Source of the DNA: Escherichia coli
GTDB taxonomy: Bacteria; Pseudomonadota; Gammaproteobacteria; Enterobacterales; Enterobacteriaceae
DNA length: 64,000 bases
Assembly: GCF_003991155.1 (NCBI RefSeq)
Contig: NZ_CP031293.1
Direction: 5' to 3' (one strand)
The notes beneath the pieces were generated by a model. It was not told where the DNA came from, searched no databases, and saw only the letters and a program-made list of their open reading frames with translations. Position numbers and translations under genes: made by a program. Shown here piece by piece: positions 10,951 through 38,648 of the stretch. The stretch's first letter is position 1. Each line of letters starts with the position of its first letter.

Positions 10951-11168
10951 TTATATCAAAACAACTCTTAGTTATTGATAATTAAGATTAACCTCCGCCA
11001 TTAAAATAGTGGGCACTGACGAGCACTCGTTGTGCTTTCTTTGTTTACCATCCCATACTTATCTTCCTGAACATGTTCATATGCCAAAATATCTTCTAAT
11101 ACTTTCGTGACGCTATCCGGTTTATGAAATACACTGATGTAAGATTTTTACTTACAGGCGGGTGTAAA

Positions 11169-11420
11169 ATGGCCAGAACGATGACGGTTGATCTCGGCGA
11201 TGAGTTGCGTGAATTTATCGAGTCCTTAATTGAATCCGGCGACTATCGCACCCAAAGCGAAGTGATCCGTGAGTCGCTGCGCTTACTTCGAGAAAAGCAA
11301 GCAGAGTCTCGCCTGCAAGCGTTACGTGACATGCTCGCTGAAGGGTTGAGTAGTGGTGAAGCTCAGCCGTGGGAAAAGGACGCGTTTTTACGGAAGGTGA
11401 AAGCAGGGATAAGGAAATAA
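11169..11420 (+). CDS. ParD/RHH-family type II antitoxin
   Basis: Small ORF with ParD-like sequence (SEVIRESLRLLREKQ...LQALR..L.EG..SG); in-frame ATG at 11169 chosen from the 11124 ORF; stop 1 nt before the toxin start. Confidence 0.75.
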   Translation: MARTMTVDLGDELREFIESLIESGDYRTQSEVIRESLRLLREKQAESRLQALRDMLAEGLSSGEAQPWEKDAFLRKVKAGIRK

Positions 11421-11421
11421 T

Positions 11422-11718
11422 GTGCGTACTATAAAACTCATGCCAAAAGCCAATGAGGATTTAGAAGGCATCTGGTATTACAGCTATCACCATTTCGGCG
11501 AACCACAAGCCGACAGATATGTGGAACATCTTTCAGACGTTCTCCAGATTCTGAGTAACAATAATATAGGTACGCCCAGACCTGAATTAGGCGAAGGTAT
11601 TTTTGTTCTTCCTTTTGAACGCCACGTAATTTATTTCCTGCAATCGCCAGAGGAAATTATCGTCATTCGTATCCTTAACCAAAACCAGGACGCCTCCAGA
11701 CATTTACACTGGAGCTAA
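11422..11718 (+). CDS. ParE/RelE-superfamily type II toxin
   Basis: 98-aa ORF (GTG start) directly after the antitoxin; ParE-like motifs (EDLEGIWYY...GEPQADRYV...GTPRPELG); alternative ATG at 11440. Confidence 0.75.
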   Translation: MRTIKLMPKANEDLEGIWYYSYHHFGEPQADRYVEHLSDVLQILSNNNIGTPRPELGEGIFVLPFERHVIYFLQSPEEIIVIRILNQNQDASRHLHWS

Positions 11719-11820
11719 ACCCGCCGATTGCGCTACAATGCCCGCCCTTAAAGTGGGGGCACTCCCCTAACCGCTTCATCAGGTGAAGCGGATCTGACCT
11801 GTCATCAGAACGAGAGAATT

Positions 11821-23010: not shown

Positions 23011-24288
23011 ATGAAAACAACAGCAAAGCTGTCGTTCATGATGTTTGTTGAATGGTTTATCTGGGGCGCGTGGTTTGTGCCATTGTGGTTGTGGTTAAGT
23101 AAAAGCGGTTTTAGTGCCGGAGAAATTGGCTGGTCGTATGCCTGTACCGCCATTGCGGCGATCCTGTCGCCGATTCTGGTTGGCTCCATCACTGACCGCT
23201 TTTTCTCGGCACAGAAAGTGCTGGCGGTATTGATGTTCGCTGGTGCGGTGCTGATGTATTTCGCCGCGCAACAGACCACTTTTGCCGGGTTCTTCCCGTT
23301 ACTGCTGGCCTACTCGCTAACCTATATGCCGACCATTGCGCTGACTAACAGTATCGCTTTTGCCAACGTGCCGGATGTGGAGCGTGATTTCCCGCGCATT
23401 CGTGTGATGGGGACTATCGGCTGGATTGCCTCTGGTCTGGCATGTGGATTCTTGCCGCAAATGCTGGGTTATGCCGATATCTCACCGACGAACATCCCGC
23501 TGCTGATTACTGCCGGAAGTTCTGCTCTGCTTGGTGTGTTTGCGTTTTTTCTGCCCGACACGCCACCAAAAAGCACCGGCAAAATGGATATTAAAGTCAT
23601 GCTCGGCCTGGATGCGCTGATCCTGCTGCGCGATAAGAACTTCCTCGTCTTTTTCTTCTGTTCATTCCTGTTTGCGATGCCACTGGCGTTCTATTACATC
23701 TTTGCCAACGGTTATCTGACCGAAGTTGGCATGAAAAACGCCACTGGCTGGATGACGCTCGGCCAGTTCTCTGAAATCTTCTTTATGCTGGCATTGCCGT
23801 TTTTCACTAAACGCTTTGGTATCAAAAAGGTATTGTTGCTTGGTCTGGTCACCGCTGCGATCCGCTATGGCTTCTTTATTTACGGTAGTGCGGATGAATA
23901 TTTCACCTACGCGTTACTGTTCCTCGGTATTTTGCTGCACGGCGTAAGTTACGATTTTTACTACGTTACCGCATACATCTATGTCGATAAAAAAGCCCCC
24001 GTGCATATGCGTACCGCCGCGCAGGGGCTGATCACGCTCTGCTGCCAGGGCTTCGGCAGTTTGCTCGGCTATCGTCTTGGCGGTGTGATGATGGAAAAGA
24101 TGTTCGCTTATCAGGAACCGGTAAACGGACTGACTTTCAACTGGGCCGGGATGTGGACTTTCGGCGCGGTGATGATTGCCATTATCGCCGTGCTGTTCAT
24201 GATTTTTTTCCGCGAATCCGACAACGAAATTACGGCTATCAAGGTCGATGATCGCGATATTGCGTTGACACAAGGGGAAGTTAAATGA
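23011..24288 (+). CDS. yegT: MFS nucleoside permease-family transporter
   Basis: 425-aa 12-TM ORF, first gene of the yegTUV cluster. Confidence 0.9.
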   Translation: MKTTAKLSFMMFVEWFIWGAWFVPLWLWLSKSGFSAGEIGWSYACTAIAAILSPILVGSITDRFFSAQKVLAVLMFAGAVLMYFAAQQTTFAGFFPLLLAYSLTYMPTIALTNSIAFANVPDVERDFPRIRVMGTIGWIASGLACGFLPQMLGYADISPTNIPLLITAGSSALLGVFAFFLPDTPPKSTGKMDIKVMLGLDALILLRDKNFLVFFFCSFLFAMPLAFYYIFANGYLTEVGMKNATGWMTLGQFSEIFFMLALPFFTKRFGIKKVLLLGLVTAAIRYGFFIYGSADEYFTYALLFLGILLHGVSYDFYYVTAYIYVDKKAPVHMRTAAQGLITLCCQGFGSLLGYRLGGVMMEKMFAYQEPVNGLTFNWAGMWTFGAVMIAIIAVLFMIFFRESDNEITAIKVDDRDIALTQGEVK

Positions 24289-25289
24289 AAACAGAACGTA
24301 TTCTCGGTGCTCTTTATGGGCAGGCGTTAGGGGATGCGATGGGGATGCCCTCCGAGCTTTGGCCACGCAGCCGCGTTAAAGCACACTTTGGCTGGATTGA
24401 CCATTTTCTGCCTGGACCAAAGGAGAATAACGCAGCCTGTTATTTTAACCGCGCCGAATTCACCGACGATACCTCGATGGCGCTGTGTCTGGCGGATGCG
24501 TTACTGGAACGTGAAGGCGAGATCGATCCGGATCTGATTGGGCGTAATATTCTCGACTGGGCGCTGCGTTTCGACGCCTTTAACAAAAACGTACTAGGTC
24601 CGACCTCGAAGATTGCGCTTAACGCCATTCGCGACGGTAAACCCGTTGCTGAACTGGAAAATAACGGCGTGACCAACGGCGCAGCGATGCGCGTCTCGCC
24701 ATTAGGTTGTTTGCTTCCGGCGCGTGATGTTGATTCCTTTATTGATGATGTGGCGCTGGCCTCCAGCCCGACCCATAAATCCGATCTGGCAGTTGCAGGT
24801 GCGGTAGTCATCGCATGGGCGATTTCTCGTGCCATTGACGGAGAAAGCTGGTCAGCGATTGTTGATTCACTGCCTTCAATTGCGCGACATGCACAGCAAA
24901 AACGCATCACTACCTTCAGCGCCTCACTGGCAGCACGTCTGGAGATTGCGCTGAAAATTGTGCGCAATGCCGACGGCACCGAATCCGCCAGCGAACAGCT
25001 GTATCAGGTCGTTGGCGCAGGTACCAGCACTATTGAGTCCGTTCCGTGCGCCATTGCGCTGGTTGAACTGGCACAAACCGACCCGAATCGCTGCGCCGTC
25101 CTGTGCGCTAACCTTGGCGGCGACACAGACACCATAGGTGCTATGGCGACGGCAATTTGCGGCGCGTTGCATGGCGTTAACGCTATCGATCCTGCGTTAA
25201 AGGCGGAACTGGATGCGGTAAATCAGCTTGATTTCAACCGCTATGCCACAGCGCTGGCGAAGTATCGCCAACAACGGGAGGCGGTATGA
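24285..25289 (+). CDS. yegU: ADP-ribosylglycohydrolase-family protein
   Basis: 334-aa ORF overlapping yegT stop and yegV start. Confidence 0.85.
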   Translation: MKTERILGALYGQALGDAMGMPSELWPRSRVKAHFGWIDHFLPGPKENNAACYFNRAEFTDDTSMALCLADALLEREGEIDPDLIGRNILDWALRFDAFNKNVLGPTSKIALNAIRDGKPVAELENNGVTNGAAMRVSPLGCLLPARDVDSFIDDVALASSPTHKSDLAVAGAVVIAWAISRAIDGESWSAIVDSLPSIARHAQQKRITTFSASLAARLEIALKIVRNADGTESASEQLYQVVGAGTSTIESVPCAIALVELAQTDPNRCAVLCANLGGDTDTIGAMATAICGALHGVNAIDPALKAELDAVNQLDFNRYATALAKYRQQREAV

Positions 25290-26251
25290 GCAGCGCTCGA
25301 TTACACACGCTGCTGCCTGAATTAACCACGCGTCAGCCAGTGATGGTCGTCGGCGCGGCGGTCATTGATGTGATCGCCGACGCTTATGCCCTCCCCTGGC
25401 GTGGGTGCGATATCGAACTGAAACAGCAGAGCGTTAACGTTGGCGGCTGTGCACTGAATATTGCCGTGGCATTAAAGCGCCTCGGCATCGAAGCGGGTAA
25501 TGCCTTGCCGCTCGGTCAGGGGGTGTGGGCGGAGATTATTCGCAACCGGATGGCAAAAGAGGACTTAATCAGCCTGATCGATAACGCCGAAGGTGATAAC
25601 GGCTGGTGTCTGGCGCTGGTTGAGCCGGATGGCGAACGCACTTTTATGTCATTCAGCGGTGTGGAAAATCAGTGGAATCGCCAATGGCTGGCACGATTAA
25701 CCGTTGCGCCTGGCAGCCTGCTCTATTTTTCCGGTTATCAACTGGCCTCGCCCTGCGGCGAATTGTTAGTGGAATGGCTGGAAGAGCTGCAAGACGTGAC
25801 GCCATTTATCGATTTTGGCCCACGTATTGGCGATATCCCGGATGCATTACTGGCGCGGATCATGGCCTGTCGACCTTTAGTGTCACTCAATCGTCAAGAG
25901 GCTGAGATTGCCGCCGAACGTTTTGCTCTATCCGCAGAGATAACAACACTAGGCAAGCAATGGCAGGAGAAATTTGCCGCGCCGTTGATCGTTCGTCTCG
26001 ATAAAGAGGGCGCATGGTATTTCAGCAACGACGCTTCTGGCTGCATTCCGGCATTTCCAACGCAAGTTGTAGACACCATTGGGGCGGGCGACAGTCATGC
26101 CGGCGGCGTACTTGCCGGGCTGGCCTCTGGTCTGCCACTGGCGGATGCCGTATTACTGGGCAATGCAGTGGCGTCGTGGGTTGTCGGGCATCGGGGCGGT
26201 GATTGTGCGCCAACGCGCGAGGAACTACTCCTCGCACACAAAAACGTATAG
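25286..26251 (+). CDS. yegV: PfkB-family sugar/nucleoside kinase
   Basis: 321-aa ORF with C-terminal GAGD motif. Confidence 0.85.
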   Translation: MSSARLHTLLPELTTRQPVMVVGAAVIDVIADAYALPWRGCDIELKQQSVNVGGCALNIAVALKRLGIEAGNALPLGQGVWAEIIRNRMAKEDLISLIDNAEGDNGWCLALVEPDGERTFMSFSGVENQWNRQWLARLTVAPGSLLYFSGYQLASPCGELLVEWLEELQDVTPFIDFGPRIGDIPDALLARIMACRPLVSLNRQEAEIAAERFALSAEITTLGKQWQEKFAAPLIVRLDKEGAWYFSNDASGCIPAFPTQVVDTIGAGDSHAGGVLAGLASGLPLADAVLLGNAVASWVVGHRGGDCAPTREELLLAHKNV

Positions 26252-26971
26252 ATCGCTGCGACAGTGGCTGATGCTGTACTCAATAGGCCGTTGCTGTTGG
26301 TCAAGCGCCACTTGCTTGATCACCAGCACCGGTATTTTGCTATCTAACTGAATATGTGACTGAAACTCGGCATCCGGCATCCGGGCGCTAACGCGGGAAC
26401 GCGTACGTTGTGGGTAAATGTGCTGGCTGCGGAAGTAGTCATAAAGAGAAATCCCGATGGCATCAACATCATGAATTAAATGTGCCGGAACCCACGATTC
26501 CTCAATCGATACCGCTTCTTCATCGACATAGCGAATACGCTTAAGCAAAAAGACATCACTTCCCGCTTCGACCGCCAGCTGCTGCGCAACTTCTTCGGGA
26601 CATTTCACGACACGCTTGTTAACCCATAGCGTATCGGGCTTTTTCCCGCGCAATACCACCTGCTGAGAAAAACCTCGCGCTTCTTTCAACGAGTATTCGA
26701 AGATGTTGTTGATCTGCGTACCGTAACCACGCGAACGCGTCACCACGCCCTCTTCTTCCAGCGCCTGCATCGCCTTGCGCACCGTAATGCGCGAAACGCC
26801 GGTTAACTGACTTAAATCACGCTCACCGGGCAAAATATTGCCATGCTCCAGCACCCCGCTGCGCACGGCATTTTTTACCGTTTCGGCAAACTTAATATAA
26901 AGCGGCGTGTTATCCGCCGCTAAAATACGTTCGTTCAGTTGGGCAATCAGCTGGGTATGCGCTTGTTCCAT
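26225..26971 (-). CDS. yegW: GntR-family transcriptional regulator
   Basis: 248-aa ORF with N-terminal wHTH and UTRA-like C-terminal domain; convergent with yegV. Confidence 0.85.
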   Translation of the reverse strand: MEQAHTQLIAQLNERILAADNTPLYIKFAETVKNAVRSGVLEHGNILPGERDLSQLTGVSRITVRKAMQALEEEGVVTRSRGYGTQINNIFEYSLKEARGFSQQVVLRGKKPDTLWVNKRVVKCPEEVAQQLAVEAGSDVFLLKRIRYVDEEAVSIEESWVPAHLIHDVDAIGISLYDYFRSQHIYPQRTRSRVSARMPDAEFQSHIQLDSKIPVLVIKQVALDQQQRPIEYSISHCRSDLYVFVCEE

Positions 26972-27022
26972 TTGTCTTTTTCCTGCCGGGGAGTCTGGTG
27001 GGAGTATATCACTGCTTCTTAT

Positions 27023-27850
27023 TTAAGGCGTTTCTTTAATCCCATCAACGAATCCCTGCAACTCCTCCTCTGTGCCATTAAACACATTAAAATCCACCGG
27101 ACCATTAATGCCATCTACCTGCCCACGGTCGGAATGCTGCCAGAAGCGCCAGGCCATGCCGTCATTGTCCGGACGACGTTGATAGTAGTGAGCCACCCAC
27201 CACGGATATTCATTGAAATAGCCCGCCAGATTCGTGTGATAAAAAACGGCTCCTGAGTAAATAATCGGCTTTTTCCCCGTACTTTTTTCGACCATTTTTA
27301 GCCACTGACTTACCCGCTTGCGTAATTCTTTTGCCGATAATTTTCCCCGTTCTTCTACGTCCAGCACGGCAGGGAAATCGCCTTGTGAGAAATCCACCGT
27401 TTGCAGAAATAATCTCGCCTGAACTGAAGCGGATACCGACGGGGAAAAATAATGATACGCCCCGCGCAGCAGGCCATTTTCGCGGCTTAGTTGCCAGTTA
27501 CGCGAAAAATAGGGGTCCACCAGCTTTTCGCCTTCCGTCGCCTTAATAAAGGCAAATTGTAAGCGAATACCGTTATCGCGCATTTTTGCCACCCGCTGCC
27601 AGTCGATTCGCTCCTGCCAGCGTGAAACATCAATACCATGAATGGTGTAACTGGCAGGAATGCGAATAGCAAAAGATTTGACCGGGCGATAACCGTAGAA
27701 GTGGATGTAGTCTTTAATCTGAATTGCTGTCGAATAGAAAAAATTCACCGTCTGACGCGGATAAATTGCAACGATGGAAATTAGCCCAAGAGCGCATAAT
27801 AAAGCGGTGAATTTTTTTCGACTGGTGATTCTCAGCTGCATTGGTTTCAT
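27023..27850 (-). CDS. yegX: Glycoside hydrolase family 25 (lysozyme-like) exported protein
   Basis: 275-aa ORF with N-terminal hydrophobic segment. Confidence 0.8.
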   Translation of the reverse strand: MKPMQLRITSRKKFTALLCALGLISIVAIYPRQTVNFFYSTAIQIKDYIHFYGYRPVKSFAIRIPASYTIHGIDVSRWQERIDWQRVAKMRDNGIRLQFAFIKATEGEKLVDPYFSRNWQLSRENGLLRGAYHYFSPSVSASVQARLFLQTVDFSQGDFPAVLDVEERGKLSAKELRKRVSQWLKMVEKSTGKKPIIYSGAVFYHTNLAGYFNEYPWWVAHYYQRRPDNDGMAWRFWQHSDRGQVDGINGPVDFNVFNGTEEELQGFVDGIKETP

Positions 27851-27905
27851 CCCTGAATGTCAGCGCCAAAGGCTGACAATAACCAAAGCAGCTATAGTAC
27901 GGTGC

Positions 27906-28706
27906 TCACCACCAGGCGTGGAAGTGGTGAACCGGACCAATACCGTGACCAACTTCCAGCGTGTCGGCCTGGGCTAACGCCGATGAAAGCCAGCTTTTTG
28001 CCTCCTGTACGGTGTCAGCCCAGTTTGTATGGCGCGGGCGCAGTGCAGCCAACGCCGCAGAGAGCGTACAACCAGTGCCGTGAGTGTTTTTGGTCATAAT
28101 GCGCGGTGCGGTAAACCGTTGTTCACCCTCGCGGGTAAACAGCCAGTCCGGGCTTTGCTCATCATCCAGATGACCACCTTTCATTAGCACTGCGCCACAG
28201 CCCATCGCCAACAGCGATCGCCCTTGTTCCAGCATTTCCTGTTCGGTGCGCGCGTGTGGCGCGTCGAGCAAGGCGGCTGCTTCGGGCAAGTTTGGCGTTA
28301 TTAATGAAACATGTGGCAATAATCGACTGCGTAGCGTGGCAACTGCCGAAGGTGAAAGCAGCGGGTCGCCGCTTTTTGCCAGCATAACGGTGTCGAGTAC
28401 CACGTTTTGGATCTGATAACGTTGCAACCGTTCTGCCACCGCTTCAACAATATCGGTTTCCGCCAACATACCGATTTTAGTGGTGTCGATTCGCACATCA
28501 CTGAACACCGAATCGAGCTGGGCGGCGACAAAATCAGGCTCAATGCGATACACCGACTGTACGCCACGGGTATTTTGCGCCACCAGTGCAGTAATCACTG
28601 AGCAACCATAAGCGCCAAGTGCCGAGAAGGTTTTAAGATCGGCCTGAATCCCCGCACCACCACTCGGATCAGTACCGGCAATCGTCAGAGCGTTAATTCG
28701 TTTCAT
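27906..28706 (-). CDS. thiD: Hydroxymethylpyrimidine/phosphomethylpyrimidine kinase
   Basis: 266-aa ORF, ThiD sequence. Confidence 0.9.
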   Translation of the reverse strand: MKRINALTIAGTDPSGGAGIQADLKTFSALGAYGCSVITALVAQNTRGVQSVYRIEPDFVAAQLDSVFSDVRIDTTKIGMLAETDIVEAVAERLQRYQIQNVVLDTVMLAKSGDPLLSPSAVATLRSRLLPHVSLITPNLPEAAALLDAPHARTEQEMLEQGRSLLAMGCGAVLMKGGHLDDEQSPDWLFTREGEQRFTAPRIMTKNTHGTGCTLSAALAALRPRHTNWADTVQEAKSWLSSALAQADTLEVGHGIGPVHHFHAWW

Positions 28707-28729
28707 GCCTGCACCTCCTGCGTCAATTG

Positions 28730-29491
28730 TCAGAGCGCATCAAGGAAATGTGGAACAAAACTGCCTGGCCCCTCGCTTCTGGCAACTGCGCGTTCTCCGG
28801 CTTGTTTCATCCAGTGACAGGCAGATGCGATATTTTCCAGCGTATCGCCTGGTAGCGCACAACAGGCAGCGACAACCGCCGATAATGCACAGCCAGTTCC
28901 TACCACTTTGGTCATTAGCGGATCGCCACCGTGAATGCCAACGATACGATGTCCATCGGTAACATAATCCACCTCGCCAGTGACCACGACGATTGCGCCA
29001 GTTTCCCGTGCCAGTGTTTGTGCAGCAGGTATCGCGTTAGCTGCGGCATCAGTGGTATCCACTCCCCGTCCGCCATTAGCAACGCCAGCTAATGCCATGA
29101 TTTCCGAAGCATTACCACGTATGGCGGTTGGCTTATGAGACAGAAGTTCCAGACAAAAACGGCGGCGATAATCGAGTGCACCCACCGCTACTGGATCAAG
29201 CGTCCAGGGTGTTTGAGAGCGTTTTGCCTGTTCAACGGCGGCACGCATCGCCTGTGCGCGTGGCTGCGTCAGCGTGCCAACGTTAATCAGCAACGCACTG
29301 GCGATTGCCGCAAACTGACTGGCCTCTTCGGTTTCGATGACCATCGCTGGCGATGCACCGAGCGCCAGTAAGGTATTGGCAGTAAAGGTTTGCACCACAT
29401 CATTGGTCATACAGTGCACAAGGGGGGAATGTTTGTGAAAAAGATGTAACGCGTGCGCAGATTGCGCGGAACTCAGCAGGTCGACTTGCAT
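28730..29491 (-). CDS. thiM: Hydroxyethylthiazole kinase ThiM; C-terminus ends early at an in-frame TGA
   Basis: 253-aa ORF; the TGA at 28730-28732 is followed in frame by QLTQEVQA and a second TGA that overlaps the thiD ATG. Confidence 0.9.
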
Positions 29492-29625
29492 AGTTTGCTC
29501 CTGCCATAACGTGAAGAAGCAATGACCTGGTGGTCCGTGACTTCCCTACGCTGGCATTATCCAGATCAGGTGATACGGGTATTTCTCAGCCTTCACGCAG
29601 AAGGGCACCCCGAGTCGTTTGGTTG
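29492..29625 (-). promoter_or_regulatory. TPP riboswitch (thi-box) leader of thiMD
   Basis: Minus-strand leader reads AACCAAACGACTCGGGGTGCCCTTCTGCGTGAAGGCTGAGAAATACCCGTATCACCTGATCTGGATAATGCCAGCGTAGGG, the thiM aptamer as I recall it, followed by the expression platform up to the thiM ATG. Confidence 0.85.
29544..29625. repeat. 82-bp direct repeat, left copy (attL-like); lies within the thiM riboswitch aptamer
   Basis: Perfect 82/82 identity with 37276..37357. Confidence 0.9.
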
Positions 29626-29837
29626 AATCTCTATATTTTGTGCCAGCTTAGGGGAAGTGGCTTGCAGATGCAAGCTCGCCTCCATTAATTGCTTCTTCTC
29701 TGTGTACCCCATTTTGTACCCCATATCAGAAATGAAAAAGAAACATTTAACATCTATCATTCAGATGATAAAAACTATTGATTATCTTAATTTGCTAATT
29801 TATATTATTTATCTAAATTTGATAGGTGAGATAAAAA

Positions 29838-30077
29838 ATGACAGAAACCCAGATCTACGAGAACATTAAGCAAGCCATTAGCAGCGCACCACGAAATAGC
29901 CAAACGATGGAAATGCACCTCCAGATGATCAAATATGCTGACCATCTGAAAAAGGTTACGGCAAAAGAGTTTTGTGAAGGTGTAGGACTTAAAGCCAGCT
30001 TTGGTACAGAGTTCAGCAAAATGAGAAATCTTACCGAGCGACTCAAAGCTGCTGGACTTGACACCACGAAGTTATAA
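29838..30077 (+). CDS. Hypothetical small protein (island)
   Basis: 79-aa ORF with SD-like GGTGAG upstream; no recognised motif. Confidence 0.4.
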   Translation: MTETQIYENIKQAISSAPRNSQTMEMHLQMIKYADHLKKVTAKEFCEGVGLKASFGTEFSKMRNLTERLKAAGLDTTKL

Positions 30078-30242
30078 AAAACAAATCATCAATATATTAT
30101 TTTTGTTTTCCAGACTTACTTGCATATGTTTCTACGAGCATAAAAAACAACAACCACCACATAGCTATTACCATAATAATGTTTTCCTTTTATATTAAAC
30201 AGAGAAATAGAATTAGAGCGTGGAATAGATGAATTCTATTTT

Positions 30243-30488
30243 CTATAACTTCTTGAGGTTGAATGTAGAAAAAGACAGCTCTTTCATTTCAATAACACCG
30301 AAATTTGATAGCTGTTTCAGCCAGAATTTTAAACCTGACTCAGAGCAACCTGCTCGATGTAACACATCGCTATATTTTAGCGGTGTTGGCTTTCCTTTAT
30401 AGAGGTAAACAAGCGTTTCGTAGGTGTGTTTTCCGGTGTCGTTACACTGAATGCGGTCTACTTGATTTTTTACTAAATATTGGATCAT
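30243..30488 (-). CDS. Hypothetical small protein, possible winged-helix (island)
   Basis: 81-aa ORF with AAGGAGG upstream, directly after the 239-aa gene stop. Confidence 0.45.
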   Translation of the reverse strand: MIQYLVKNQVDRIQCNDTGKHTYETLVYLYKGKPTPLKYSDVLHRAGCSESGLKFWLKQLSNFGVIEMKELSFSTFNLKKL

Positions 30489-30499
30489 AGTCCTCCTTA

Positions 30500-31219
30500 T
30501 TAAAATGGAATGTCAAAATCGTCCTCTTCTGTCTCAGGTATCGTGTATATATGTTCTCTTCCTGTAAATTCAGAAACCACTATTGAAATTAGCCTGTATG
30601 CCTCTATTTTATCGCCCTGCGTTTCAGCTAAAGCCCACTCAAGGGCTGCTTCTGTTGGCTGTCCATTCGGTTTGCAAATAGTGACACCGCCCCAAGGAAG
30701 CTCTGTTTTTTCCTGCTGAATAGAGCGTGTTGTTTCTAGTGTTTTTTTATCTTCCGTAGGGGGAAGCTGTTCAGGAACAGCTTTAACAGTAGATACTTGC
30801 TCTGTCTGTGGCTTTTCTGCATTTACAGAGGCTTTCGCTTCTCTTGGTGCTGTAATATGTGCATCTGTAAAGGGTAATGCTTTATAGAGTGATGTTTGAC
30901 CGTGGCGTGCCTCTACAGAAAGAACTCCCATATCAACAAACATATTTATAATATTGCGTACCTGACGATCACTAACCATTCCAATATTAGCTAATGTTTT
31001 TTGAGTAGCGTAACATTCTTGCCCTTGTTCATTGAATCCAGCTATATAGCTATAGATTTCAACGGCTGGCAGTGTAGCGGTGTATTCATTACCAGATGGT
31101 GAGTACCATTTTTTAAACATCTTCAACCATTGCTCAACAACTACATATTTTTGTTTACCATCTTTCTGATTTAGACATTTGGCTTTCGCTTCGGCAATTG
31201 TTTTGATATTTTTGATCAT
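30500..31219 (-). CDS. Putative replication-initiator-like DNA-binding protein with SSB-like acidic C-terminal tip (…EEDDFDIPF)
   Basis: 239-aa ORF with strong AAGGAGG SD; N-terminal wHTH-like segment, P/E/K/T-rich linker, C-terminus DDFDIPF. Confidence 0.6.
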   Translation of the reverse strand: MIKNIKTIAEAKAKCLNQKDGKQKYVVVEQWLKMFKKWYSPSGNEYTATLPAVEIYSYIAGFNEQGQECYATQKTLANIGMVSDRQVRNIINMFVDMGVLSVEARHGQTSLYKALPFTDAHITAPREAKASVNAEKPQTEQVSTVKAVPEQLPPTEDKKTLETTRSIQQEKTELPWGGVTICKPNGQPTEAALEWALAETQGDKIEAYRLISIVVSEFTGREHIYTIPETEEDDFDIPF

Positions 31220-31343
31220 TTAGTTCCTCCTTTGTAAGGACTGTAATTAGTAGTTCATTAACAAGTTTTGGAATTGATTTCCCTTCTGCCTTTGCGCGAT
31301 TTAACAACGCGTTATAAGTTGCAGAGTCAAAATTAATATTCAT
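31155..31343 (-). CDS. Ribbon-helix-helix (CopG/Arc-like) small DNA-binding protein
   Basis: Start at MNINFDSATYNALLNRAKAEGKS with GGAGAGGAGA SD; overlaps start of the Rep-like gene. Confidence 0.55.
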   Translation of the reverse strand: MNINFDSATYNALLNRAKAEGKSIPKLVNELLITVLTKEELNDQKYQNNCRSESQMSKSERW

Positions 31344-31365
31344 TTGGTTTTCTCCTCTCCTGTTA

Positions 31366-31548
31366 TTATTCTTTCTCTGCTTCTGCCTTACGCAGTTCAT
31401 CAATAATCTTGAGTGCATCGTCAAAGCATTTTTCACGCTCTGGATAACCTCGACTCCTTGCCATATTACGATTCATTACTACTTGATGTCGTGTTAACTC
31501 ACCTTTTTTAAATGCCTCTACGACGTGTTCCGGTATAAACCATTTCAT
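31366..31548 (-). CDS. Hypothetical 60-aa protein, first gene of the island's minus-strand operon
   Basis: ATG preceded by AAGGAG at optimal spacing; basic/acidic helical sequence. Confidence 0.5.
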   Translation of the reverse strand: MKWFIPEHVVEAFKKGELTRHQVVMNRNMARSRGYPEREKCFDDALKIIDELRKAEAEKE

Positions 31549-32323
31549 AAAAAACTCCTTATTCAGTTAAAAGAAAAACACCTTGCAAGCCTGACGGCTT
31601 CAAAGTGCATTGATTTTGATTATTTAGAGAAGAATGTTTTTCTGTCCCTCTAGTACCTATTATTACATATAAATAAACATTTGTCAATATCTTTTCATAA
31701 AAAATCAGAACCTTTTCATGCACTTACATTTTTTCTTAGCGATTCGTGCTCTCCTGTGTAGTGCTATTCTTCATTACCAGCTAAAACGCTCTAAAACGCG
31801 TTCTAACGAAGTTTTGATAAAAGCAATACATTCTCTTATGTAATGGCTGTTTAGCTCGCCAGAGGCTTATTTAAGTGGCTTATTTTGTATTTGTTAGATG
31901 ATGATAGATATAAAACAGAGAGTTCTTAGATTAGTTACTTTATAAAACGCTCTGTAAAGCCCTGTAGTGAGTTTATATATGTAGGCAAAGCGGTTTCCAT
32001 TCTCTACCCTGCTTAATGCTGTTAGAGAAGCATTTAGACCCCTTATTTTTAATTACCTAAAGTATCCTCTATACATCTCTGTTATGAAACACCTCTGAAT
32101 CCTTCATAAAACACATTATGACGCAAAGAACACTTTTCTAAGGTGATTCCCTTCCTGAACTCTGTTTCTTGCGTCAGAGAGCTACACAGAGAGCTTATAA
32201 AGCTATTATTAATAATAAAGTAGATAAAGTAAGTAAGATAAGTAAGAAGATTAACTAAGATAGATAAGATTAATAAGATCAGAATTCTCTTTCGGTGTCG
32301 CCTCTGGCTTTTCCACCGAAAAC

Positions 32324-33019
32324 AATTACACGACTACAGAATGTAGGAAGTGAAATTGTATTGAGGCTTAGTGAAATTACACGAGGAAAGCAGAGTGTAA
32401 TTGAGCTTTAGCCGCTCTCTCTTCGAGTAATTACACAACTACAGAGAATAACAGAGTTATTAAATGTAGGAGGGTAATTAAGAGTTAGAGAGAGTTAACA
32501 CGTAAGCAATCAGATGATTGGTTAGGTGATTACTCTTACTGCGCACAGCGCAATAGTATTCCTTCGTGGGCGTTACCGCCAACGATAGTTACACGAAGAA
32601 AGTAACGCTTTGCTTTCGGTGTGAGCGGAACGGGCCAGCCACAAAGCCCGAAAGGTAGCGGAGTAAGGCTGCTTGCCAGAGAGTGGAGCTAACGCCGGAA
32701 GGCAAAAGATCATATATATAGTATAAAGAATATTATTTAATTATAGTATTGGTGGAACTCATTACCTAAGGTAAACCGGAGACCACTTCCAACGGTTAGG
32801 CAACCACTTCCAATTGTGTTATTTCCCCTTTTACCCTAAGTAAATTTTAGCCTTTCGTTACATCCATTTATCACATAGCACTTACCCTGTGTAAATCATA
32901 GAATAATGCTCTCTATTCCCTGTGTAATTCCATACTAAAAAATTCAATGAAAAGTAGTTTAAAAGTGCAATGTTAGCTTTCTTCACTTTTACATCACTTT
33001 CGCTGCGCCTTGTGTAATG
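32324..33019. repeat. Iteron-like repeat cluster (AATTACAC core, both orientations) in a 1.75-kb non-coding region
   Basis: AATTACACGACTACAGA at ~32324 and AATTACACAACTACAGA at ~32429; shorter copies at ~32375 and inverted at ~32396, ~32885, ~32918, ~33008. Confidence 0.6.
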
Positions 33020-33312
33020 CGGCTTACAGAGCACTATCAGAAATTATTGATCAAAAATCAACCTATTATTTGTCGAACAAGTTTTCTTTAATGCAACAAA
33101 AATTATTTTTTCAAAATAAACACACAATTTAATAGCTTGCTAATTTTACCAAAATGTAACTACATGATTCTCATGCAAGAAGTGTAGTGATAAGGCAGGC
33201 TAAATCACCACACTAAAAAACTTCGAATTTCGTAGTGAAAAAAGTACTTTACACACCTAATCAACACGCCCAATAATCACTACACACAAATCAATACAGA
33301 AGAAAAAAGAAG

Positions 33313-33864
33313 ATGGCTAATATTGGATACATTAGGGTATCGACTGTGCAACAAAACACAGACCGTCAATTAGCAGGAGTAACTCTTGATAAAGTCTTTG
33401 AAGATAAAGCGTCAGGCAAGAACACTCAGCGCCCACAGTTTGAGGCAATGATGAACTATGTGCGGGAGGGTGACGTGTTACACGTCCATAGTATTGATCG
33501 CCTTTGTCGTAATACAGCCGACCTTCTGGCAACTGTAGAGCAATTAACAAAGCGCGGCGTGTCTGTGCATTTCCATAAAGAAGACTTTAAGACAGGAAAG
33601 AACTCTCCCGCAGGGAATATGATGCTCACAGTTCTTGCAGCAGTGGCACAAATGGAACGTGAAATGATGCTTGAGCGTCAACGTGAAGGGATCGCCGCAG
33701 CCAAGGCCGCTGGACGTATAGCAAAACGTGGTAATGGAAAAGCAATTGATCGAGCGGGAATTGCTGCCGCTCTCGCGAATGGTGGCTCAATTCGGAGCGT
33801 AGCAAAAGATTTCAGTGTCAGCACGCAGACGGTGCAACGTATCAAGAAAGAGCAGGTGGCGTAA
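33313..33864 (+). CDS. Small serine recombinase (resolvase/invertase family)
   Basis: 183 aa; N-terminal catalytic motif IGYIRVSTVQQNTDRQ with the nucleophilic Ser; C-terminal HTH. Confidence 0.85.
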   Translation: MANIGYIRVSTVQQNTDRQLAGVTLDKVFEDKASGKNTQRPQFEAMMNYVREGDVLHVHSIDRLCRNTADLLATVEQLTKRGVSVHFHKEDFKTGKNSPAGNMMLTVLAAVAQMEREMMLERQREGIAAAKAAGRIAKRGNGKAIDRAGIAAALANGGSIRSVAKDFSVSTQTVQRIKKEQVA

Positions 33865-34030
33865 TGCCTCCTTGATATTTGACAGGGACGGTCGGCAAAA
33901 ATCGGGGCTTGCTGATCTCAGCGTTGAGCGGTTCTTGCAATGGTGCCTAGGTGCTCGCTTGTATTCCCCTTCGATAATCACCACTAAGCCACTTATTGCC
34001 TTGTGGAGTGGCCCGAAAATTACTGATATC

Positions 34031-34531
34031 TTATTGATTCAGTCGATCCCATTTAACCGCAGATACAATTCCCCAATTACCACTAGCATTAGGCCTACGC
34101 CACTTCGCGGTTTCCATTCCACGAAGGTATTCGAGAGCTTCATTGAACGAACTGAAACGTTTCTGGGCTGATTTTTCCCCTACTCTAAACGAACCATCGC
34201 GAGTACTTGCCAATCCTGGATGAAAACACGACCCATCTGCAGCATAAGGAACAAGTACCTCCTGATCATCAGGTTTCCTTGAATCAGAAGCCAGTAACTG
34301 CCAAGGCTCAATACGCAAAGCGTCAGCCAGAACCTCAATTGCATCAAGAGATGCATTAGAGCAACCACGCTCAATTCGACTCATATAACTACGTGCAAAA
34401 CCACACCGATCTGCAAAGGCCTCTTGGCTTAAGCCAATAGCTATACGGAACTCTTTTACTCGTTGTCCAAAAAGGTATCTCAGATTCTTTCGCATGGCAC
34501 AAAGATGCAATTTGACGCACCAATTAACCAC
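34031..34531 (-). CDS. XRE-family HTH regulator with uncharacterised C-terminal domain
   Basis: Cro/C1-type HTH (GLSQEAFADRCGFARSYMSRIERG); likely start at internal Met (34495). Confidence 0.7.
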   Translation of the reverse strand: MVNWCVKLHLCAMRKNLRYLFGQRVKEFRIAIGLSQEAFADRCGFARSYMSRIERGCSNASLDAIEVLADALRIEPWQLLASDSRKPDDQEVLVPYAADGSCFHPGLASTRDGSFRVGEKSAQKRFSSFNEALEYLRGMETAKWRRPNASGNWGIVSAVKWDRLNQ

Positions 34532-34605
34532 GCACTAATCGTGACATTTTGAATCAATCATGTATTATTAGCATCACCATCCATTTGACACACCAAGGGA
34601 GACAA

Positions 34606-34953
34606 ATGAAAAAACTAGTATTTGCCGCTTTGTTAATTCCAGTGATGGGCCACGCCACAACCTTTTCCTGTAAAGCAATACAGGAAGGTCATATTGACTC
34701 GGGAAGTCAGAAAGTTTCTGTAGATTCAACTTTTGATATACAAGATAAAAAAATGACCATAAATCTTGGCGGTAAAACTTGGAGACTTGATTTGGTAGGT
34801 CAAAAAAGCATCGCAAAGATGTATGCTACACCTGACGGAGGGGTTGCAGCCACATACATTGACAATGGCAGTATACCGATATTTGTATTACGCCCTTCTA
34901 ATCCCGATGGGGAGATGGCTGTTTACACATTGAGTATGTGTTCTGAAGTATGA
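34606..34953 (+). CDS. Small secreted protein of unknown function
   Basis: Start at MKKLVFAALLIPVMGHA (signal peptide) with AAGGGAGA SD; divergent from the XRE gene. Confidence 0.6.
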   Translation: MKKLVFAALLIPVMGHATTFSCKAIQEGHIDSGSQKVSVDSTFDIQDKKMTINLGGKTWRLDLVGQKSIAKMYATPDGGVAATYIDNGSIPIFVLRPSNPDGEMAVYTLSMCSEV

Positions 34954-35030
34954 TTGATCGGCGTGATATTCACGCCGTTTTTGGGGAAATTTGTATATTG
35001 AAAAATATAGAAATAGAACTTTTATCAAGC

Positions 35031-35756
35031 CTATTTATTAACAGGTAGTAATGTCAGATCGCCATAATGGGCTTGTCTATGGCAATTAGGACATAATGCA
35101 ATAGCATTTTCCACAGAGTCCTCCCCCCCCTTTGAAAGCCACTCAATATGATGAACTTCTAGAAATGGAGTACCATCTTCCTTTAGAAAAGGAGCATCTC
35201 GCTTACAATATTGACATTTTCCATTTGCACTCAAAAGAACTTCAGCAACTACATATGGGCTTCGTTTATAAACTCGTGTTGTTACTTCGATTAGTTCCGG
35301 GATTTTACTTTCTGTCGCTAAAATTTGCTTTCGTTCCACTGAAGATAATTTTGCAGCCGTCTCAACAGCTTCTTCGAAAACCGATTTTACTTGACGATAA
35401 CGCCACATCCCTTCTAAATCCTGGTATAATTCCCAAATACCGTGCACAGATGGTTGATAGATTTCAAAAATATTTCCACGCTTGAACAATCGGTCATACT
35501 TATGATGCCGATGAGTTACATCATCAGTTCGTCGGGCAGTTTTGTTGAAACTCCAGTAGCTCCGCTTACAATTAACTGTATTAGCAATTAAATTGAGCCA
35601 AGTATTATCTTTATAAGATGGAAATAGCTTTCTAAGATAATCATCTACCTGCTTAGCCGTTGCAGCCCCACCAAACTGATTAGCAATTATCTGTATGGTA
35701 ATAGCTCTTATCGGTTGATCGCCATACTTGTATTTTTTGCCTAAATTTTTAACCAT
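35031..35756 (-). CDS. HNH endonuclease, McrA-like C-terminal nuclease domain with distinct N-terminal domain
   Basis: C-terminal CQYC...EVHHIEWLSKGG...NAIALCPNCHRQAHY zinc-finger HNH motif, similar to what I recall of E. coli McrA; ~150-aa N-terminal region unrecognised. Confidence 0.75.
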   Translation of the reverse strand: MVKNLGKKYKYGDQPIRAITIQIIANQFGGAATAKQVDDYLRKLFPSYKDNTWLNLIANTVNCKRSYWSFNKTARRTDDVTHRHHKYDRLFKRGNIFEIYQPSVHGIWELYQDLEGMWRYRQVKSVFEEAVETAAKLSSVERKQILATESKIPELIEVTTRVYKRSPYVVAEVLLSANGKCQYCKRDAPFLKEDGTPFLEVHHIEWLSKGGEDSVENAIALCPNCHRQAHYGDLTLLPVNK

Positions 35757-35884
35757 AGAAGACTCACTAAGCCTAAATTCATCTTAAGTTATTATTGTAA
35801 ATTAGTTGTGAAAATTTTTGATCTCAGACAATAAAAATCTACAAATTATTAGCTGGTTATACACTAAGAAGGATACACGAATAA

Positions 35885-37222
35885 CTAAGTCTCCCAACAA
35901 AGACCATCGATCACATAACAAACGGTGGAAAGTGGGAATGTGTGCAGATAACGCTGGGTAATCCCTACTCCACTCTTTTCATGACCTACCACCTGTTGCA
36001 GATGCGCCAAATTACTCACCCAACCAGCTAAACAAGTAGAAATCATAGTATGCCGGAAACTATGCACCAAGCGCCGCTGCCCATAATCATCAAGATAAGG
36101 AATATCAAGCTGATCACGAACATCTGAAAGAACTTTACCTATCTTTGACATATTTCGACCTGAGACTTCCGAAAAGATTTTCTCTTTCCATTGGCGGTTA
36201 ACAAAATCCAGAAACCCCCACTCAATCAGTTTGGGATGAATCACTACCTGTCTTGTAGCATTCTCAGTTTTACCCAGCCTTCTTTCCGCGATCAGAAGAT
36301 AGTGCCGCTGGCTATCTTCATCAAATTTGATCTGCGACTTCTCCAGTTTAGCAATCTCACCTCTTCTGGCTCCTGTGTACGCCAACAACAAAGTGATCCA
36401 CTTCTGCCATCCATCAGGCTGCTTTAGTGCCCATCCTACAAATTTTTTCATTTCTGCTGCACTGTATGCACCAAACCTAGCTTTGGATGGTGCCGCTACT
36501 ATTCCATCAGTCGGAGACTTAGATAGAATATCTTTGTTTTCAGTCAGAAATGTTTTGAATAACGATTTGTAGATTTTAAGGTGCTTATGTACAGCCTCAG
36601 CACCAACTAAATCCTCTGGCAGCACATCATCACATTCGATTAGTTGCTGAATAGTCATTGACCTATACGGTTGCACTACACGCTTTGGTAAGTTTTCGAC
36701 AGTTTCCATTACTCGCTTAATATCTTGTTTGGTGATTGCCGTTACGTCTGTTTCTTTTCCCAAGACAACAAGCAATACCTCCATATAACGCTCATTTGCC
36801 ATTGAGATCGATTTTGTCCAATTTCGACCTCTTTCCTCCTTGTACATAGCCCACGCATCAGCAAGTGTTAGCACCTTTTCCGGTTTGGCTGGTGGTTGAA
36901 GCTGCAAAACTTCTTTAGAAATATTGTTCAATTGCTGAGGGAGTGGCAACGGAATCATTACGTTACGTGACGAAGCGATCAAGTTTGAAACAAACTTATT
37001 AAATTGTGGCAACGGAGTAGCGAGTGATTTAACGAAAGGAATGTGCGGAGTAAGGCCAATCATCAACGCCGATGCTTCGCGATAACTGTCAGTAAAAAGT
37101 GATTTTTTGTATATCCGACCATCCGAAAGCCGGATTTGTAGATAGTAATTACCGTTTCGCTGAAATGTGTATGGGAGAGTTCTTGACCTCATAAACGCCC
37201 CCTTTTTGTACCTTAACAGCAT
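35885..37222 (-). CDS. Tyrosine site-specific integrase
   Basis: 445 aa; C-terminal catalytic region with HSFRHT and GITQRYLH; starts 53 bp from the right direct repeat. Confidence 0.85.
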   Translation of the reverse strand: MLLRYKKGAFMRSRTLPYTFQRNGNYYLQIRLSDGRIYKKSLFTDSYREASALMIGLTPHIPFVKSLATPLPQFNKFVSNLIASSRNVMIPLPLPQQLNNISKEVLQLQPPAKPEKVLTLADAWAMYKEERGRNWTKSISMANERYMEVLLVVLGKETDVTAITKQDIKRVMETVENLPKRVVQPYRSMTIQQLIECDDVLPEDLVGAEAVHKHLKIYKSLFKTFLTENKDILSKSPTDGIVAAPSKARFGAYSAAEMKKFVGWALKQPDGWQKWITLLLAYTGARRGEIAKLEKSQIKFDEDSQRHYLLIAERRLGKTENATRQVVIHPKLIEWGFLDFVNRQWKEKIFSEVSGRNMSKIGKVLSDVRDQLDIPYLDDYGQRRLVHSFRHTMISTCLAGWVSNLAHLQQVVGHEKSGVGITQRYLHTFPLSTVCYVIDGLCWET

Positions 37223-37275
37223 GATTTATGGTCAAAAAGAGATACAACCACATAATTTTCAAGACTATTTTGGCC

Positions 37276-37357
37276 CCCTACGCTGGCATTATCCAGATCA
37301 GGTGATACGGGTATTTCTCAGCCTTCACGCAGAAGGGCACCCCGAGTCGTTTGGTTG
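37276..37357. repeat. 82-bp direct repeat, right copy (attR-like); duplicate of the thiM aptamer segment
   Basis: Identical to 29544..29625; followed by native sequence leading into rcnR. Confidence 0.9.
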
Positions 37358-37445
37358 CGATGATAAATCGCAAAGGAGGATGGTAATGTCCAGCGCACGC
37401 GTTGTAAACGAGGAAAAACGGCAGTTTTACAATCGCGTTAATAAA

Positions 37446-37718
37446 TTATTTGATATATGAATCCAGCACCTTCAGAACGACATCCAGATCTTCTTCACGT
37501 TTTAGCTCATCCCCCTGGTGAACGATGTGTTCCGTCAGATGACCTTTAATCACTTCCCGCATCAGACCGTTTACCGCGCCACGGATAGCAGCAATCTGTT
37601 GTAAAACTGCAGCGCATTCGTGCGGCTCGTCGAGCATTTTCTTGAGCGCCACGACCTGGCCCTGAATCTTACTGGCACGCGCTTTCAGTTTCTGTTTATC
37701 ACGGATGGTATGAGACAT
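37446..37718 (-). CDS. rcnR: Ni/Co-responsive repressor RcnR
   Basis: 90-aa ORF, CsoR/RcnR family; divergent from rcnA. Confidence 0.9.
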
Positions 37719-37766
37719 GGCAACACCTGGTTAACAAGAATATGAAAAATCATAGCACTATTAATC

Positions 37767-37801
37767 TACTGGGGGGTAGTATCAGGTACTGGGGGGGAGT
37801 A
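37767..37801. promoter_or_regulatory. RcnR operator sites (TACT-G6/7-AGTA) in the rcnR-rcnA intergenic region
   Basis: TACTGGGGGGTAGTA and TACTGGGGGGGAGTA, 5 bp apart; matches the RcnR recognition motif as I recall it. Confidence 0.7.
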
Positions 37802-37838
37802 GAATCAGATTGCCGAATTAATACTAAGAATTATTATC

Positions 37839-38648
<810 letters not shown>

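Follow-up and report, generated by a model that had tools for sequence, protein, structure and literature searches.

Why would a chromosomal island of Escherichia coli that carries a tyrosine integrase at its end encode a second site-specific recombinase of a different kind? This question is raised by a gene on the plus strand (33313-33864) of the 64-kb stretch of DNA analysed in this study (the window), which starts with an ATG and codes for a small serine recombinase of the resolvase type, with 183 aa comprising a catalytic domain and a C-terminal HTH. A sequence-only reading of the locus had offered two alternatives for its role, the resolution of multimers in an element of plasmid-like origin or the control of an invertible switch in the adjacent non-coding region, of which the first has gained support in our analysis and the second has not. 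The recombinase and a res-like site located directly upstream probably constitute the multimer-resolution module of a 7.7-kb island that also encodes a Rep-like protein and has a putative origin, and the enzyme would most likely be used to convert multi-copy circles of this mobile island into single copies.

Results

An intact small serine recombinase

The protein belongs to the small serine recombinases, whose PF00239 domain, catalytic set, HTH and length of about 180-200 aa are all found in it. The Pfam family Resolvase (PF00239) matches residues 4-135 with an E-value of 1.1e-38 (133 bits compared to a cut-off of 23.3), and the best hits in the PDB are the Tn3 and gamma-delta resolvases (E 3e-27), which align over residues 1-181 including the HTH domain. 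The class of the protein and its C-terminal HTH, both of which had been claimed before, are borne out by the open reading frame and by this full-length alignment, with the C-terminus matching the Pfam families HTH_Tnp_ISL3 (26.5 bits) and HTH_23 (23.9 bits) at scores slightly under their gathering thresholds. Further matches in the PDB concern the invertase Gin (E 1.6e-24) and Sin (E 6.7e-18). By alignment, R8, S10, D31, R40, D62, R63 and R66 correspond to R8, S10, D36, R45, D67, R68 and R71 of gamma-delta; the full set of catalytic residues is present and the recombinase is intact. Its residues R8, S10, R63 and R66 are invariant across eight relatives with identities down to 62%. Purifying selection acts on the gene, with a dN/dS of 0.07 over its whole length in the comparison with the copy of O104:H4, and with pN values of 0.15-0.28 towards more distant relatives, where synonymous sites are saturated.

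The proposed comparison with the Tn3 and Hin/Gin families gave a less clear-cut answer. The identity amounts to 38.5% for Tn3, 37% for gamma-delta and 36% for Gin, near-equal values which imply that sequence similarity alone cannot tell a resolvase from an invertase, and the bit scores of the PDB matches are 98.8 for Tn3, 90 for Gin and 68 for Sin. Existing labels are similarly divided between 'recombinase family protein' in RefSeq (WP_001273871) and 'DNA invertase' for the best match in PHROG, and none of the NCBIfam equivalogs reached its cut-off. A relationship to large serine recombinases, which have 400-700 aa, a PF07508 domain and a C-terminus with zinc ribbon and coiled coil, was found neither in the length, which is confined to 183 aa, nor in the alignment to the XisF and Ccr models, which engages the catalytic domain alone at scores far under the cut-offs.

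A res-like array upstream of the gene

The 118 bp directly 5' of the gene (33182-33299) harbour a putative res-like array built from copies of the half-site GTGTAGTGAT, whose subsite layout was drawn by scanning with the half-site consensus. The putative crossover subsite I (33182-33213) is a 32-bp imperfect palindrome of the form GTGTAGTGAT-N12-ATCACCACAC (10+12+10) with a central dinucleotide AG. It is followed, at a centre-to-centre distance of 52 bp, by the putative accessory subsite II (33230-33269), a 40-bp inverted pair TCGTAGTGAA ... ATCAACACGC, and by the putative accessory subsite III, which consists of the direct copies ATCACTACAC (33276-33285) and ATCAATACAG (33290-33299), separated by 14 bp from start to start. 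An upstream search for imperfect palindromes resembling res or hix, as had been suggested earlier, was thus rewarded with two such elements of 32 and 40 bp. We predict that a res site with one crossover and further accessory subsites adjoins the gene, with the choice of the crossover subsite forming part of the prediction. The recombinase is an uncharacterised member of a well-known kind, and the layout of its res is a modest variant.

The 10-mer GTGTAGTGAT is found at 33182 on the plus strand, at 33204 on the minus strand with one mismatch and at 33276 on the minus strand, amounting to three copies in 104 bp, and the entire window contains seven matches with at most one mismatch compared to 2.4 expected. 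In an unbiased scan for the largest 10-mer family per 200-bp segment (both strands, at most one mismatch, 638 segments of the 64 kb), the segment upstream of the recombinase contains four copies and shares the top position with a single other one, which originates from a His-rich coding repeat in rcnA; there is no third. This stricter measure had replaced an 8-mer family statistic (one mismatch, 41 IMG/VR loci), which was dropped since controls reached about three copies and it did not discriminate. Even so, the 10-mer statistic failed to pick up the arrays of three related loci (L012, L010 and L007), whose degeneration is evident by eye. In a footprint test on nine distinct close relatives, 2 of 60 half-site columns were variable compared to 6 of 58 spacer columns, a difference in the expected direction that does not reach significance (p 0.16).

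A putative sigma-70-like promoter for the recombinase (TTTACA-18-AATAAT, plus strand, 33248-33277, 10 of 12 positions matching) sits, as read from the sequence, within subsites II and III. Such a layout would be expected for autoregulation, and the recombinase probably also represses its own synthesis.

Relatives on small plasmids and the specificity of the half-site

The nearest proteins beyond the E. coli islands (with about 60-75% identity) are mostly encoded on contigs of Enterobacteriaceae with a length of about 4.5-5.7 kb. Two of them, L008 and L009, are 4.5-kb Salmonella contigs whose 30-nt terminal overlaps indicate that they are circular. Their recombinase, which is 67% identical to the protein of the island, is preceded by a 32-bp palindrome GTGTAGTGAA-N12-ATCAGCACAT, a 40-bp palindrome and two further direct ATCACTACAT copies at spacings of 15 and 14 bp. 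The same arrangement of subsites I, II and III as in the island is found in L010, a 5-kb E. coli contig with a recombinase of 64% identity, and in both L008 and L010 the right half of subsite II forms, together with the two copies, a direct trio spaced by 15-16 and 14 bp. The homologues preceded by this layout are 64-69% identical to the recombinase of the island. The 40-bp geometry of subsite II is thus shared with these two plasmid contigs, and an equivalent of the 32-bp subsite I is present in L003, L004, L008 and L010. The distance between the centres of subsites I and II is 63-64 bp in the plasmid contigs compared to 52 bp in the island, a gap of about one helical turn. Further homologues are found on the E. 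coli plasmid pDETEC86 (NZ_CP116175, 1,985 bp), where the recombinase is the only annotated gene and is preceded by three palindromic CTGTAGTAAT sites, and on a 5.7-kb plasmid of K. pneumoniae (L007, NZ_CP073059), whose recombinase is 71% identical and accompanied by CGTAGTG half-sites. A literature search found no experimental study of these small plasmid recombinases of enterobacteria.

A change in the recognition helix goes along with a change in the half-site, and each of the loci concerned keeps an array of at least three sites. The helix VSTQTVQRIK is associated with the half-site GTAGTGA or GTGGTGA in the island, L008 and L010, VAPSTVQRIK with GTATYCAT in L003 and L004, ISTRTVMNIK with CGTTGTWAT in L012 and ISTRTVQNIK with CTGTAGTAAT in pDETEC86. 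The alignment with an island of E. coli ATCC 8739 that occupies the same thiM site breaks exactly at 33088-33342 and resumes on both sides, which implies that the res site and the gene were exchanged as one cassette. No relation was found between the 637-aa protein of the 4.5-kb plasmids and the island proteins of 613 and 715 aa, and searches of Pfam and PHROG gave no matches.

An island in the leader of thiM

The island spans 7,732 bp and is flanked by a perfect 82-bp direct repeat. The left copy (attL, 29544-29625) is located within the TPP riboswitch of thiM (Rfam RF00059, 71.2 bits) and the right copy (attR, 37276-37357) in a second copy of the riboswitch upstream of int (61.3 bits). Since the empty site of K-12 contains one copy of the repeat and no island, we conclude that the element entered the thiM leader by site-specific recombination. 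The order of the chromosome is mdtABCD-baeSR ... thiD-thiM, the island and rcnR-rcnA-rcnB-yehA. Out of 5,426 complete genomes of E. coli, 80 contain the complete island, covering at least 80% of an 8.5-kb stretch in one place. No account of an integration into the thiM riboswitch was found in a literature search.

From left to right, the island encodes an HTH_73-like gene (29838-30077, plus strand), an 81-aa ORF (30243-30488, minus), a Rep-like winged-helix protein of 239 aa (30500-31219, minus; Pfam HTH_36, E 1.5e-5), which is a putative replication initiator, and a 60-aa ORF (31366-31548, minus), which is accompanied by a promoter-like site at 31687-31659 that is strong and directed leftwards. 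On the other side of the recombinase reside a gene of the XRE-type HTH family (34031-34495, minus), a 115-aa ORF (34606-34953, plus) and a cargo gene (35031-35756, minus) for an HNH endonuclease (Pfam HNH, E 1.2e-12) resembling type IV methyl-directed restriction enzymes, which is also matched by the PADLOC model mREase_IV (E 1.9e-23) and whose slot is taken by a GmrSD-domain gene in the island of ATCC 8739. The claim of a tyrosine integrase at the island end was correct, as the gene at 35885-37222 (minus) matches PF00589 (E 8e-7) and is annotated by PGAP as a tyrosine-type recombinase/integrase with its start at 37192. Neither a transposase among the ORFs and annotations of the island nor terminal inverted repeats were found, its ends being direct repeats, and an assignment of the recombinase as TnpR of a Tn3-family transposon was ruled out by the absence of tnpA and of the terminal inverted repeats of such transposons.

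The Rep-like gene and the non-coding region

Located between the leftward operon and res is an AT-rich non-coding region of about 1.4-1.6 kb (31549-33181), which contains no ORF of at least 60 aa. Its iteron-like repeats comprise three copies of AATTACAC spaced by 51 and 54 bp, two copies of ACCACTTCCAA that are 21 bp apart, three copies of CCCTGTGTAAT and a TAAGAT-rich array. Parts of it recur with 87-94% conservation at more than one chromosomal site in E. coli, in hundreds of genomes, and among eight related islands the segment 32350-32450 shows one variable column, which is below the value of the adjacent 60-aa ORF. The region is clearly functional, and its features make a role as a putative origin or control region the likeliest. 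Its assignment as the origin stays putative, as the same region is common to islands with differing Rep alleles. A search of 29000-38000 against Rfam (E up to 1) detected the two TPP riboswitches and otherwise matches at chance level, leaving the non-coding region blank. A ColE1-type RNA origin was rejected, as neither RNAI nor any other Rfam match was found there, and the folding of a GC-rich patch (32530-32705) was unconvincing, with z-scores of -1.8 on one strand and -2.1 on the other.

The Rep-like protein resembles replication initiation, O-like and DnaD-like families in PHROG (E 4e-7 to 7e-4) and has no match in the PDB or in NCBIfam, and the assignment of 30500-31219 as a Rep is weak. 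The gene and the iteron-rich non-coding region are neighbours of the recombinase and its res-like site. Together with the array itself and the equivalent layout in relatives from small plasmids, this neighbourhood favours the multimer-resolution role that had been considered for an element of plasmid-like ancestry.

Inversion or resolution

In a scan of the window for palindromes consisting of two 10-mers with a spacer of 10-14 and up to five mismatches, only the site at 33182-33213 is of good quality, with one mismatch in 20 positions. The other matches contain five mismatches each; there are four of them compared to 0-2 (mean about 1) in shuffled sequence, a comparison on the basis of which we treat them as chance. 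The only other match of the 10-mer in the island, at 31756, has no partner half-site, and neither the non-coding region nor any other segment is enclosed by long inverted repeats. The 64 kb thus hold a single subsite I of high quality, corresponding to one res per replicon.

The order of the region is equally uniform in other genomes. Among the best 60 of the 80 carriers, which were compared at the level of assemblies, the segment 31300-34000 is colinear in all 60, in 54 of them as a single ungapped match with at least 99.4% identity, with the remainder showing IS3 insertions (2/60) or a change in length by 39-65 bp (4/60). When the full 8.5 kb are considered, the best-matching genomes listed are likewise colinear, 23 at the top of the list with one piece at 100%. 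Frequent flipping would be expected to reveal both orientations in a set of 60 assemblies, in which one order was seen. A switch is unsupported, and the single crossover-type site in combination with the colinear genomes supports multimer resolution and not an invertase switch. The proposal of such a switch in the non-coding region was therefore not sustained, as neither a second, inverted crossover site, nor both orientations in the best 60 of the 80 genomes, nor a high identity to Gin were encountered.

Larger relatives and related phages

Larger relatives of the island comprise a 12.8-kb element beside tRNA-Thr in O104:H4 2011C-3493 as well as L012 and L076. They share an order consisting of the integrase, a Dit-like, a tape-measure-like and a capsid-like gene, the Rep-like gene, a non-coding gap of 1.3-1.9 kb and the small recombinase. 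The Dit-like tail protein is identified by PF21821 (E 1e-27), the match of the capsid-like protein to PHROG 29 is weak, and IMG/VR classes these elements as proviruses. The 7.7-kb island is a reduced member of this family with a defence-type cargo slot. The type of integrase differs among its members, with L076 encoding a large serine recombinase and others having tyrosine integrases with thiM, tRNA-Thr or tRNA-Ser as their site. The small recombinase is retained.

Segments that are 97-100% identical to the island on the nucleotide level are also found in lytic Justusliebigvirus phages. In phage inny, gene 184 encodes a protein of 367 aa that is composed of three parts. The N-terminal part (residues 1-140) shares 88% identity with the Rep-like allele of L016, a sister island, and the middle part, from about residue 160 to 250, is nearly identical to residues 30-120 of the Rep-like protein of the island described here. 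Both correspond to DNA-binding domains of Rep, which are fused to a C-terminal endonuclease domain matched by PHROG 681 (E 3.9e-18) and by the Pfam families MUG113 (at threshold) and T5orf172 (E 0.025). Phage PaulScherrer contains instead a 61-aa gene with 98% identity to an unannotated ORF of the island (31155-31343, minus). A literature search found no description of the island family, of satellites of Justusliebigvirus or of the nuclease gene of inny.

Discussion

The properties of the locus are reflected in a mechanism whose steps we have modelled on the Tn3/gamma-delta and Sin paradigms. Dimers of the recombinase would bind to subsites I, II and III. After excision, replication of the island would give rise to head-to-tail dimers or concatemers, in which two direct copies of res could synapse via their accessory subsites. 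Ser10 would then introduce a double-strand cut in the middle of subsite I, and the rotation of subunits followed by religation would release monomer circles, which could persist as such, undergo packaging or serve the tyrosine integrase for a new integration. A need of the island for multimer resolution is suggested by its Rep-like gene, by the precedent of SGI1 and by the preservation of the recombinase alongside different integrases, and we infer that the element replicates autonomously. Once excised, SGI1, which likewise has a tyrosine integrase, replicates from a rep/iteron oriV (PMC7433901). It thus resembles the island in combining a tyrosine integrase with a rep gene and an iteron origin, although in the latter Rep and origin are putative. 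The proteins of SGI1 are unrelated to those of the island and it is mobilised by IncC plasmids, and in contrast to SGI1, the larger members of the island family contain phage-like genes of the Dit-like, tape-measure-like and capsid-like type. Both SGI1 and GIsul2 carry a resolvase gene, resG.

The closest structurally characterised counterparts are the Tn3 and gamma-delta resolvases (PDB 1GDT, 1ZR4 and 5CY1), which share with the island recombinase the size of 183 aa, the two-domain layout and the catalytic residues. Their res likewise resembles the upstream multi-subsite array of about 118 bp and its overlap with a promoter. In the res of gamma-delta, which measures 114 bp in a layout of 28+22+34+5+25, the centres of subsites I and II are 53 bp apart compared to the 52 bp of the island. 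Unlike in these systems, to which the identity is only 37-38%, the island contains neither tnpA nor terminal inverted repeats, and its subsites extend over 32 and 40 bp, with a third composed of direct rather than inverted half-sites. This third subsite recalls site II of Sin, an accessory subsite of direct motif repeats. The Sin/beta systems of Gram-positive plasmids (PDB 2R0Q) also share with the island the character of a stand-alone, plasmid-type resolution system outside a transposon, but the similarity of Sin is lower than that of Tn3 (68 compared to 99 bits) and its res contains two subsites and a site for HU/IHF, whereas there are three subsites in the island array. Nearest among all relatives beyond the E. 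coli islands are the recombinases of the small enterobacterial plasmids (L008/L009, NZ_CP073059 and pDETEC86), which are 64-71% identical and with which the half-site core GTAGTGA is shared and, in case of L008 and L010, also the I/II/III layout. In contrast to these proteins, which are encoded on free plasmids, the version of the island is integrated together with a tyrosine integrase.

Other roles of the recombinase have to be weighed against this assignment. It is very unlikely that the protein is a DNA invertase that causes phase variation by flipping a segment such as a promoter, either within the neighbouring non-coding region or at another place. Its best PHROG match carries that label, Gin is with 36% nearly as close as Tn3 with 38%, and a long non-coding region adjoins the gene, but neither the island nor the 64 kb offer a second crossover-type site, as the match at 31756 is partnerless, there are no bracketing long inverted repeats and the best 60 of 80 carrier genomes are uniformly colinear over 2.7 kb. 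The presence of accessory subsites at the side of the gene is a resolvase trait, since it is a feature of res and not of hix or gix. The Fis-dependent invertases Gin, Hin, Cin and Pin share the superfamily and the size of the island recombinase and are mutually about 60% identical or more. Unlike in these proteins, its identity to Gin is confined to 36% and its locus shows no inverted pair of crossover sites, no invertible segment and, in the best 60 of 80 genomes, no orientation polymorphism. Even more improbable is a function as second integrase or excisionase of the island. Although it would place a site-specific recombinase in an integrative element, a protein of 183 aa has no room for the large domains that serine integrases possess at the C-terminus, the island ends in an 82-bp repeat beside the tyrosine integrase that contains no GTAGTGA sites, and relatives combine the small recombinase with varied integrases and att sites. 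Since the small recombinase is kept while integrases vary, it is not the integrase.

A role mainly as DNA-binding regulator, which by binding to the array represses its own and neighbouring promoters and whose recombination activity is vestigial, appears improbable, albeit less so than inversion. The promoter-like site embedded in subsites II and III would be compatible with such a role and Tn3-family resolvases are known to act as repressors. Yet all catalytic residues are kept in relatives with identities down to 62%, the dN/dS of 0.07 extends over the whole gene, and a palindromic subsite of the crossover type is retained in relatives from plasmids and islands. Slightly better placed, but still unlikely, is recombination between elements, in which the enzyme would form or resolve cointegrates with a replicon carrying a matching site, such as a related island, a helper phage or a plasmid, or would convert transduced concatemers into monomer circles in a new cell. 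This would be in line with the presence of two to five related places in many genomes, the shuffling of res and gene as a cassette among island backbones and the recent gene flow between the island family and lytic phages. However, resolvases with accessory sites normally act intramolecularly and are thus confined to one molecule, and the proposal would leave the resolution chemistry as it is and place it in another context, with no change of activity. We thus retain the resolution of multimers of the island itself as the preferred explanation.

The family to which the island belongs suggests a wider setting. In phage ICP1, the nuclease Odn combines a T5orf172 nuclease with the DNA-binding domain of RepA from the satellite PLE and cuts the origin of the latter (PMC8263062). 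Gene 184 of inny follows the same domain logic. The combined observations suggest that the islands are satellites of Justusliebigvirus phages, that their Rep-like protein is an origin binder and that a phage-satellite arms race underlies the fusions of Rep domains to a nuclease. A joint reading, which we put forward as tentative and consider rather doubtful as a whole, would regard recombinase and res, the conserved non-coding region of 1.4-1.9 kb and Rep as the maintenance core of an undescribed family of phage-satellite-like E. coli islands that parasitise Justusliebigvirus, with the phages responding by an Odn-like counter-nuclease. Full-size members may in that case have about 12.8 kb, with the 7.7-kb island having exchanged its phage-like genes for a restriction-type cargo, the nuclease of the phages may have been built from two captured DNA-binding domains of Rep, and the resolvase may turn concatemers resulting from replication or packaging into monomer circles that are ready for integration.

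Collectively, our analysis has assigned to the recombinase itself a routine maintenance function in an island whose context is more unusual. The resolvases are thereby extended by an uncharacterised clade, common to tiny enterobacterial plasmids and integrative islands, with a res layout in which two palindromic subsites are combined with a subsite of direct repeats. In conjunction with the gene for the Rep-like protein and the conserved non-coding stretch, the recombinase marks the island as a replicating element and not as a passive insertion. Possibly weightier leads are offered by the integration of the island in a TPP riboswitch and by the apparent E. coli counterpart of the arms race between Odn of ICP1 and RepA of PLE.

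Discussion

The island is inserted in the aptamer of the thiM TPP riboswitch, of which 82 bp are duplicated, and copies of the riboswitch are found at 29526–29625 and 37259–37357 of the window. At thiM itself the riboswitch is restored but the DNA upstream of it is that of the island. The native promoter of thiM now lies directly upstream of the integrase gene (35885–37222, minus strand), together with a copy of the riboswitch whose score of 61.3 bits is still above the Rfam threshold. Expression of the integrase could therefore respond to thiamine. The slot between the integrase and a 115-aa ORF is occupied in the window strain by the gene for an HNH protein similar to type IV methyl-directed restriction enzymes (35031–35756, minus strand) and in the ATCC 8739 island by a gene with a GmrSD domain (11159–12730 of locus L003); this slot appears to be an exchangeable position for anti-phage cargo.

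A non-coding stretch of 1.4 kb with several repeat families extends over 31700–33180, and a gap of 1.3–1.9 kb adjoining the small serine recombinase (33313–33864, plus strand) is a constant feature of the island family. In blocks of this stretch such as 32350–32450, related islands differ less from one another than they do in the neighbouring ORF, whereas for the central part of the stretch (31900–32700) there are two or more unrelated versions. In the ETEC strains B7A, 504211, 503025 and 503440 (H133–H136), the length differs from that of the window by 39–65 bp somewhere within 31300–34000, which possibly reflects copy-number variation of TAAGAT-type repeats. Homologues of the recombinase are also encoded on plasmids of about 2 kb from E. 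coli and Salmonella (pDETEC86, NZ_AP027492 and NZ_CP130129); in pDETEC86 (NZ_CP116175, 1,985 bp), the one plasmid among them from which gene content was read, the homologue is the only annotated gene and about 1.4 kb of the sequence is non-coding.

The island has full-size relatives of about 12.8 kb in E. coli O104:H4 2011C-3493 (24121–36313 of locus L005) and at the loci L012 and L076. These three contain Dit-like, tape-measure-like and capsid-like genes, with no recognisable terminase or portal, and their integrases differ in kind. They look like an undescribed family of satellites or mini-phages that is carried by hundreds of E. coli genomes.

An unannotated 62-aa ORF (MNINFDSATYNALLNRAKAEGKSIPKLVNELL..., 31155–31343, minus strand) overlapping the start of the Rep-like gene (30500–31219, minus strand) is 98% identical to bas60_0101 of the lytic phage PaulScherrer, with 100% nucleotide identity across 166 bp, and is also found in Justusliebigvirus VEcB. 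The Rep-like gene itself shares, in segments, 97–98.5% nucleotide identity with the lytic Justusliebigvirus phages inny, muut, Mt1B1_P17 and BI-EHEC. In inny_184 (367 aa; 2140–3243, minus strand, of locus L006 from inny, MN850601), the one gene examined among these phages, two Rep-like DNA-binding domains of the kind found in these islands are combined with an endonuclease domain at the C-terminus (PHROG 681, E 3.9e-18; MUG113/T5orf172). One of the two has 88% identity to the allele of a sister island (L016), and the other is nearly identical to that of the window. This fusion of Rep-like DNA-binding domains to a nuclease follows the same logic as Odn, the anti-satellite nuclease of ICP1 (PMC8263062), and suggests an arms race between satellite and phage in E. 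coli.
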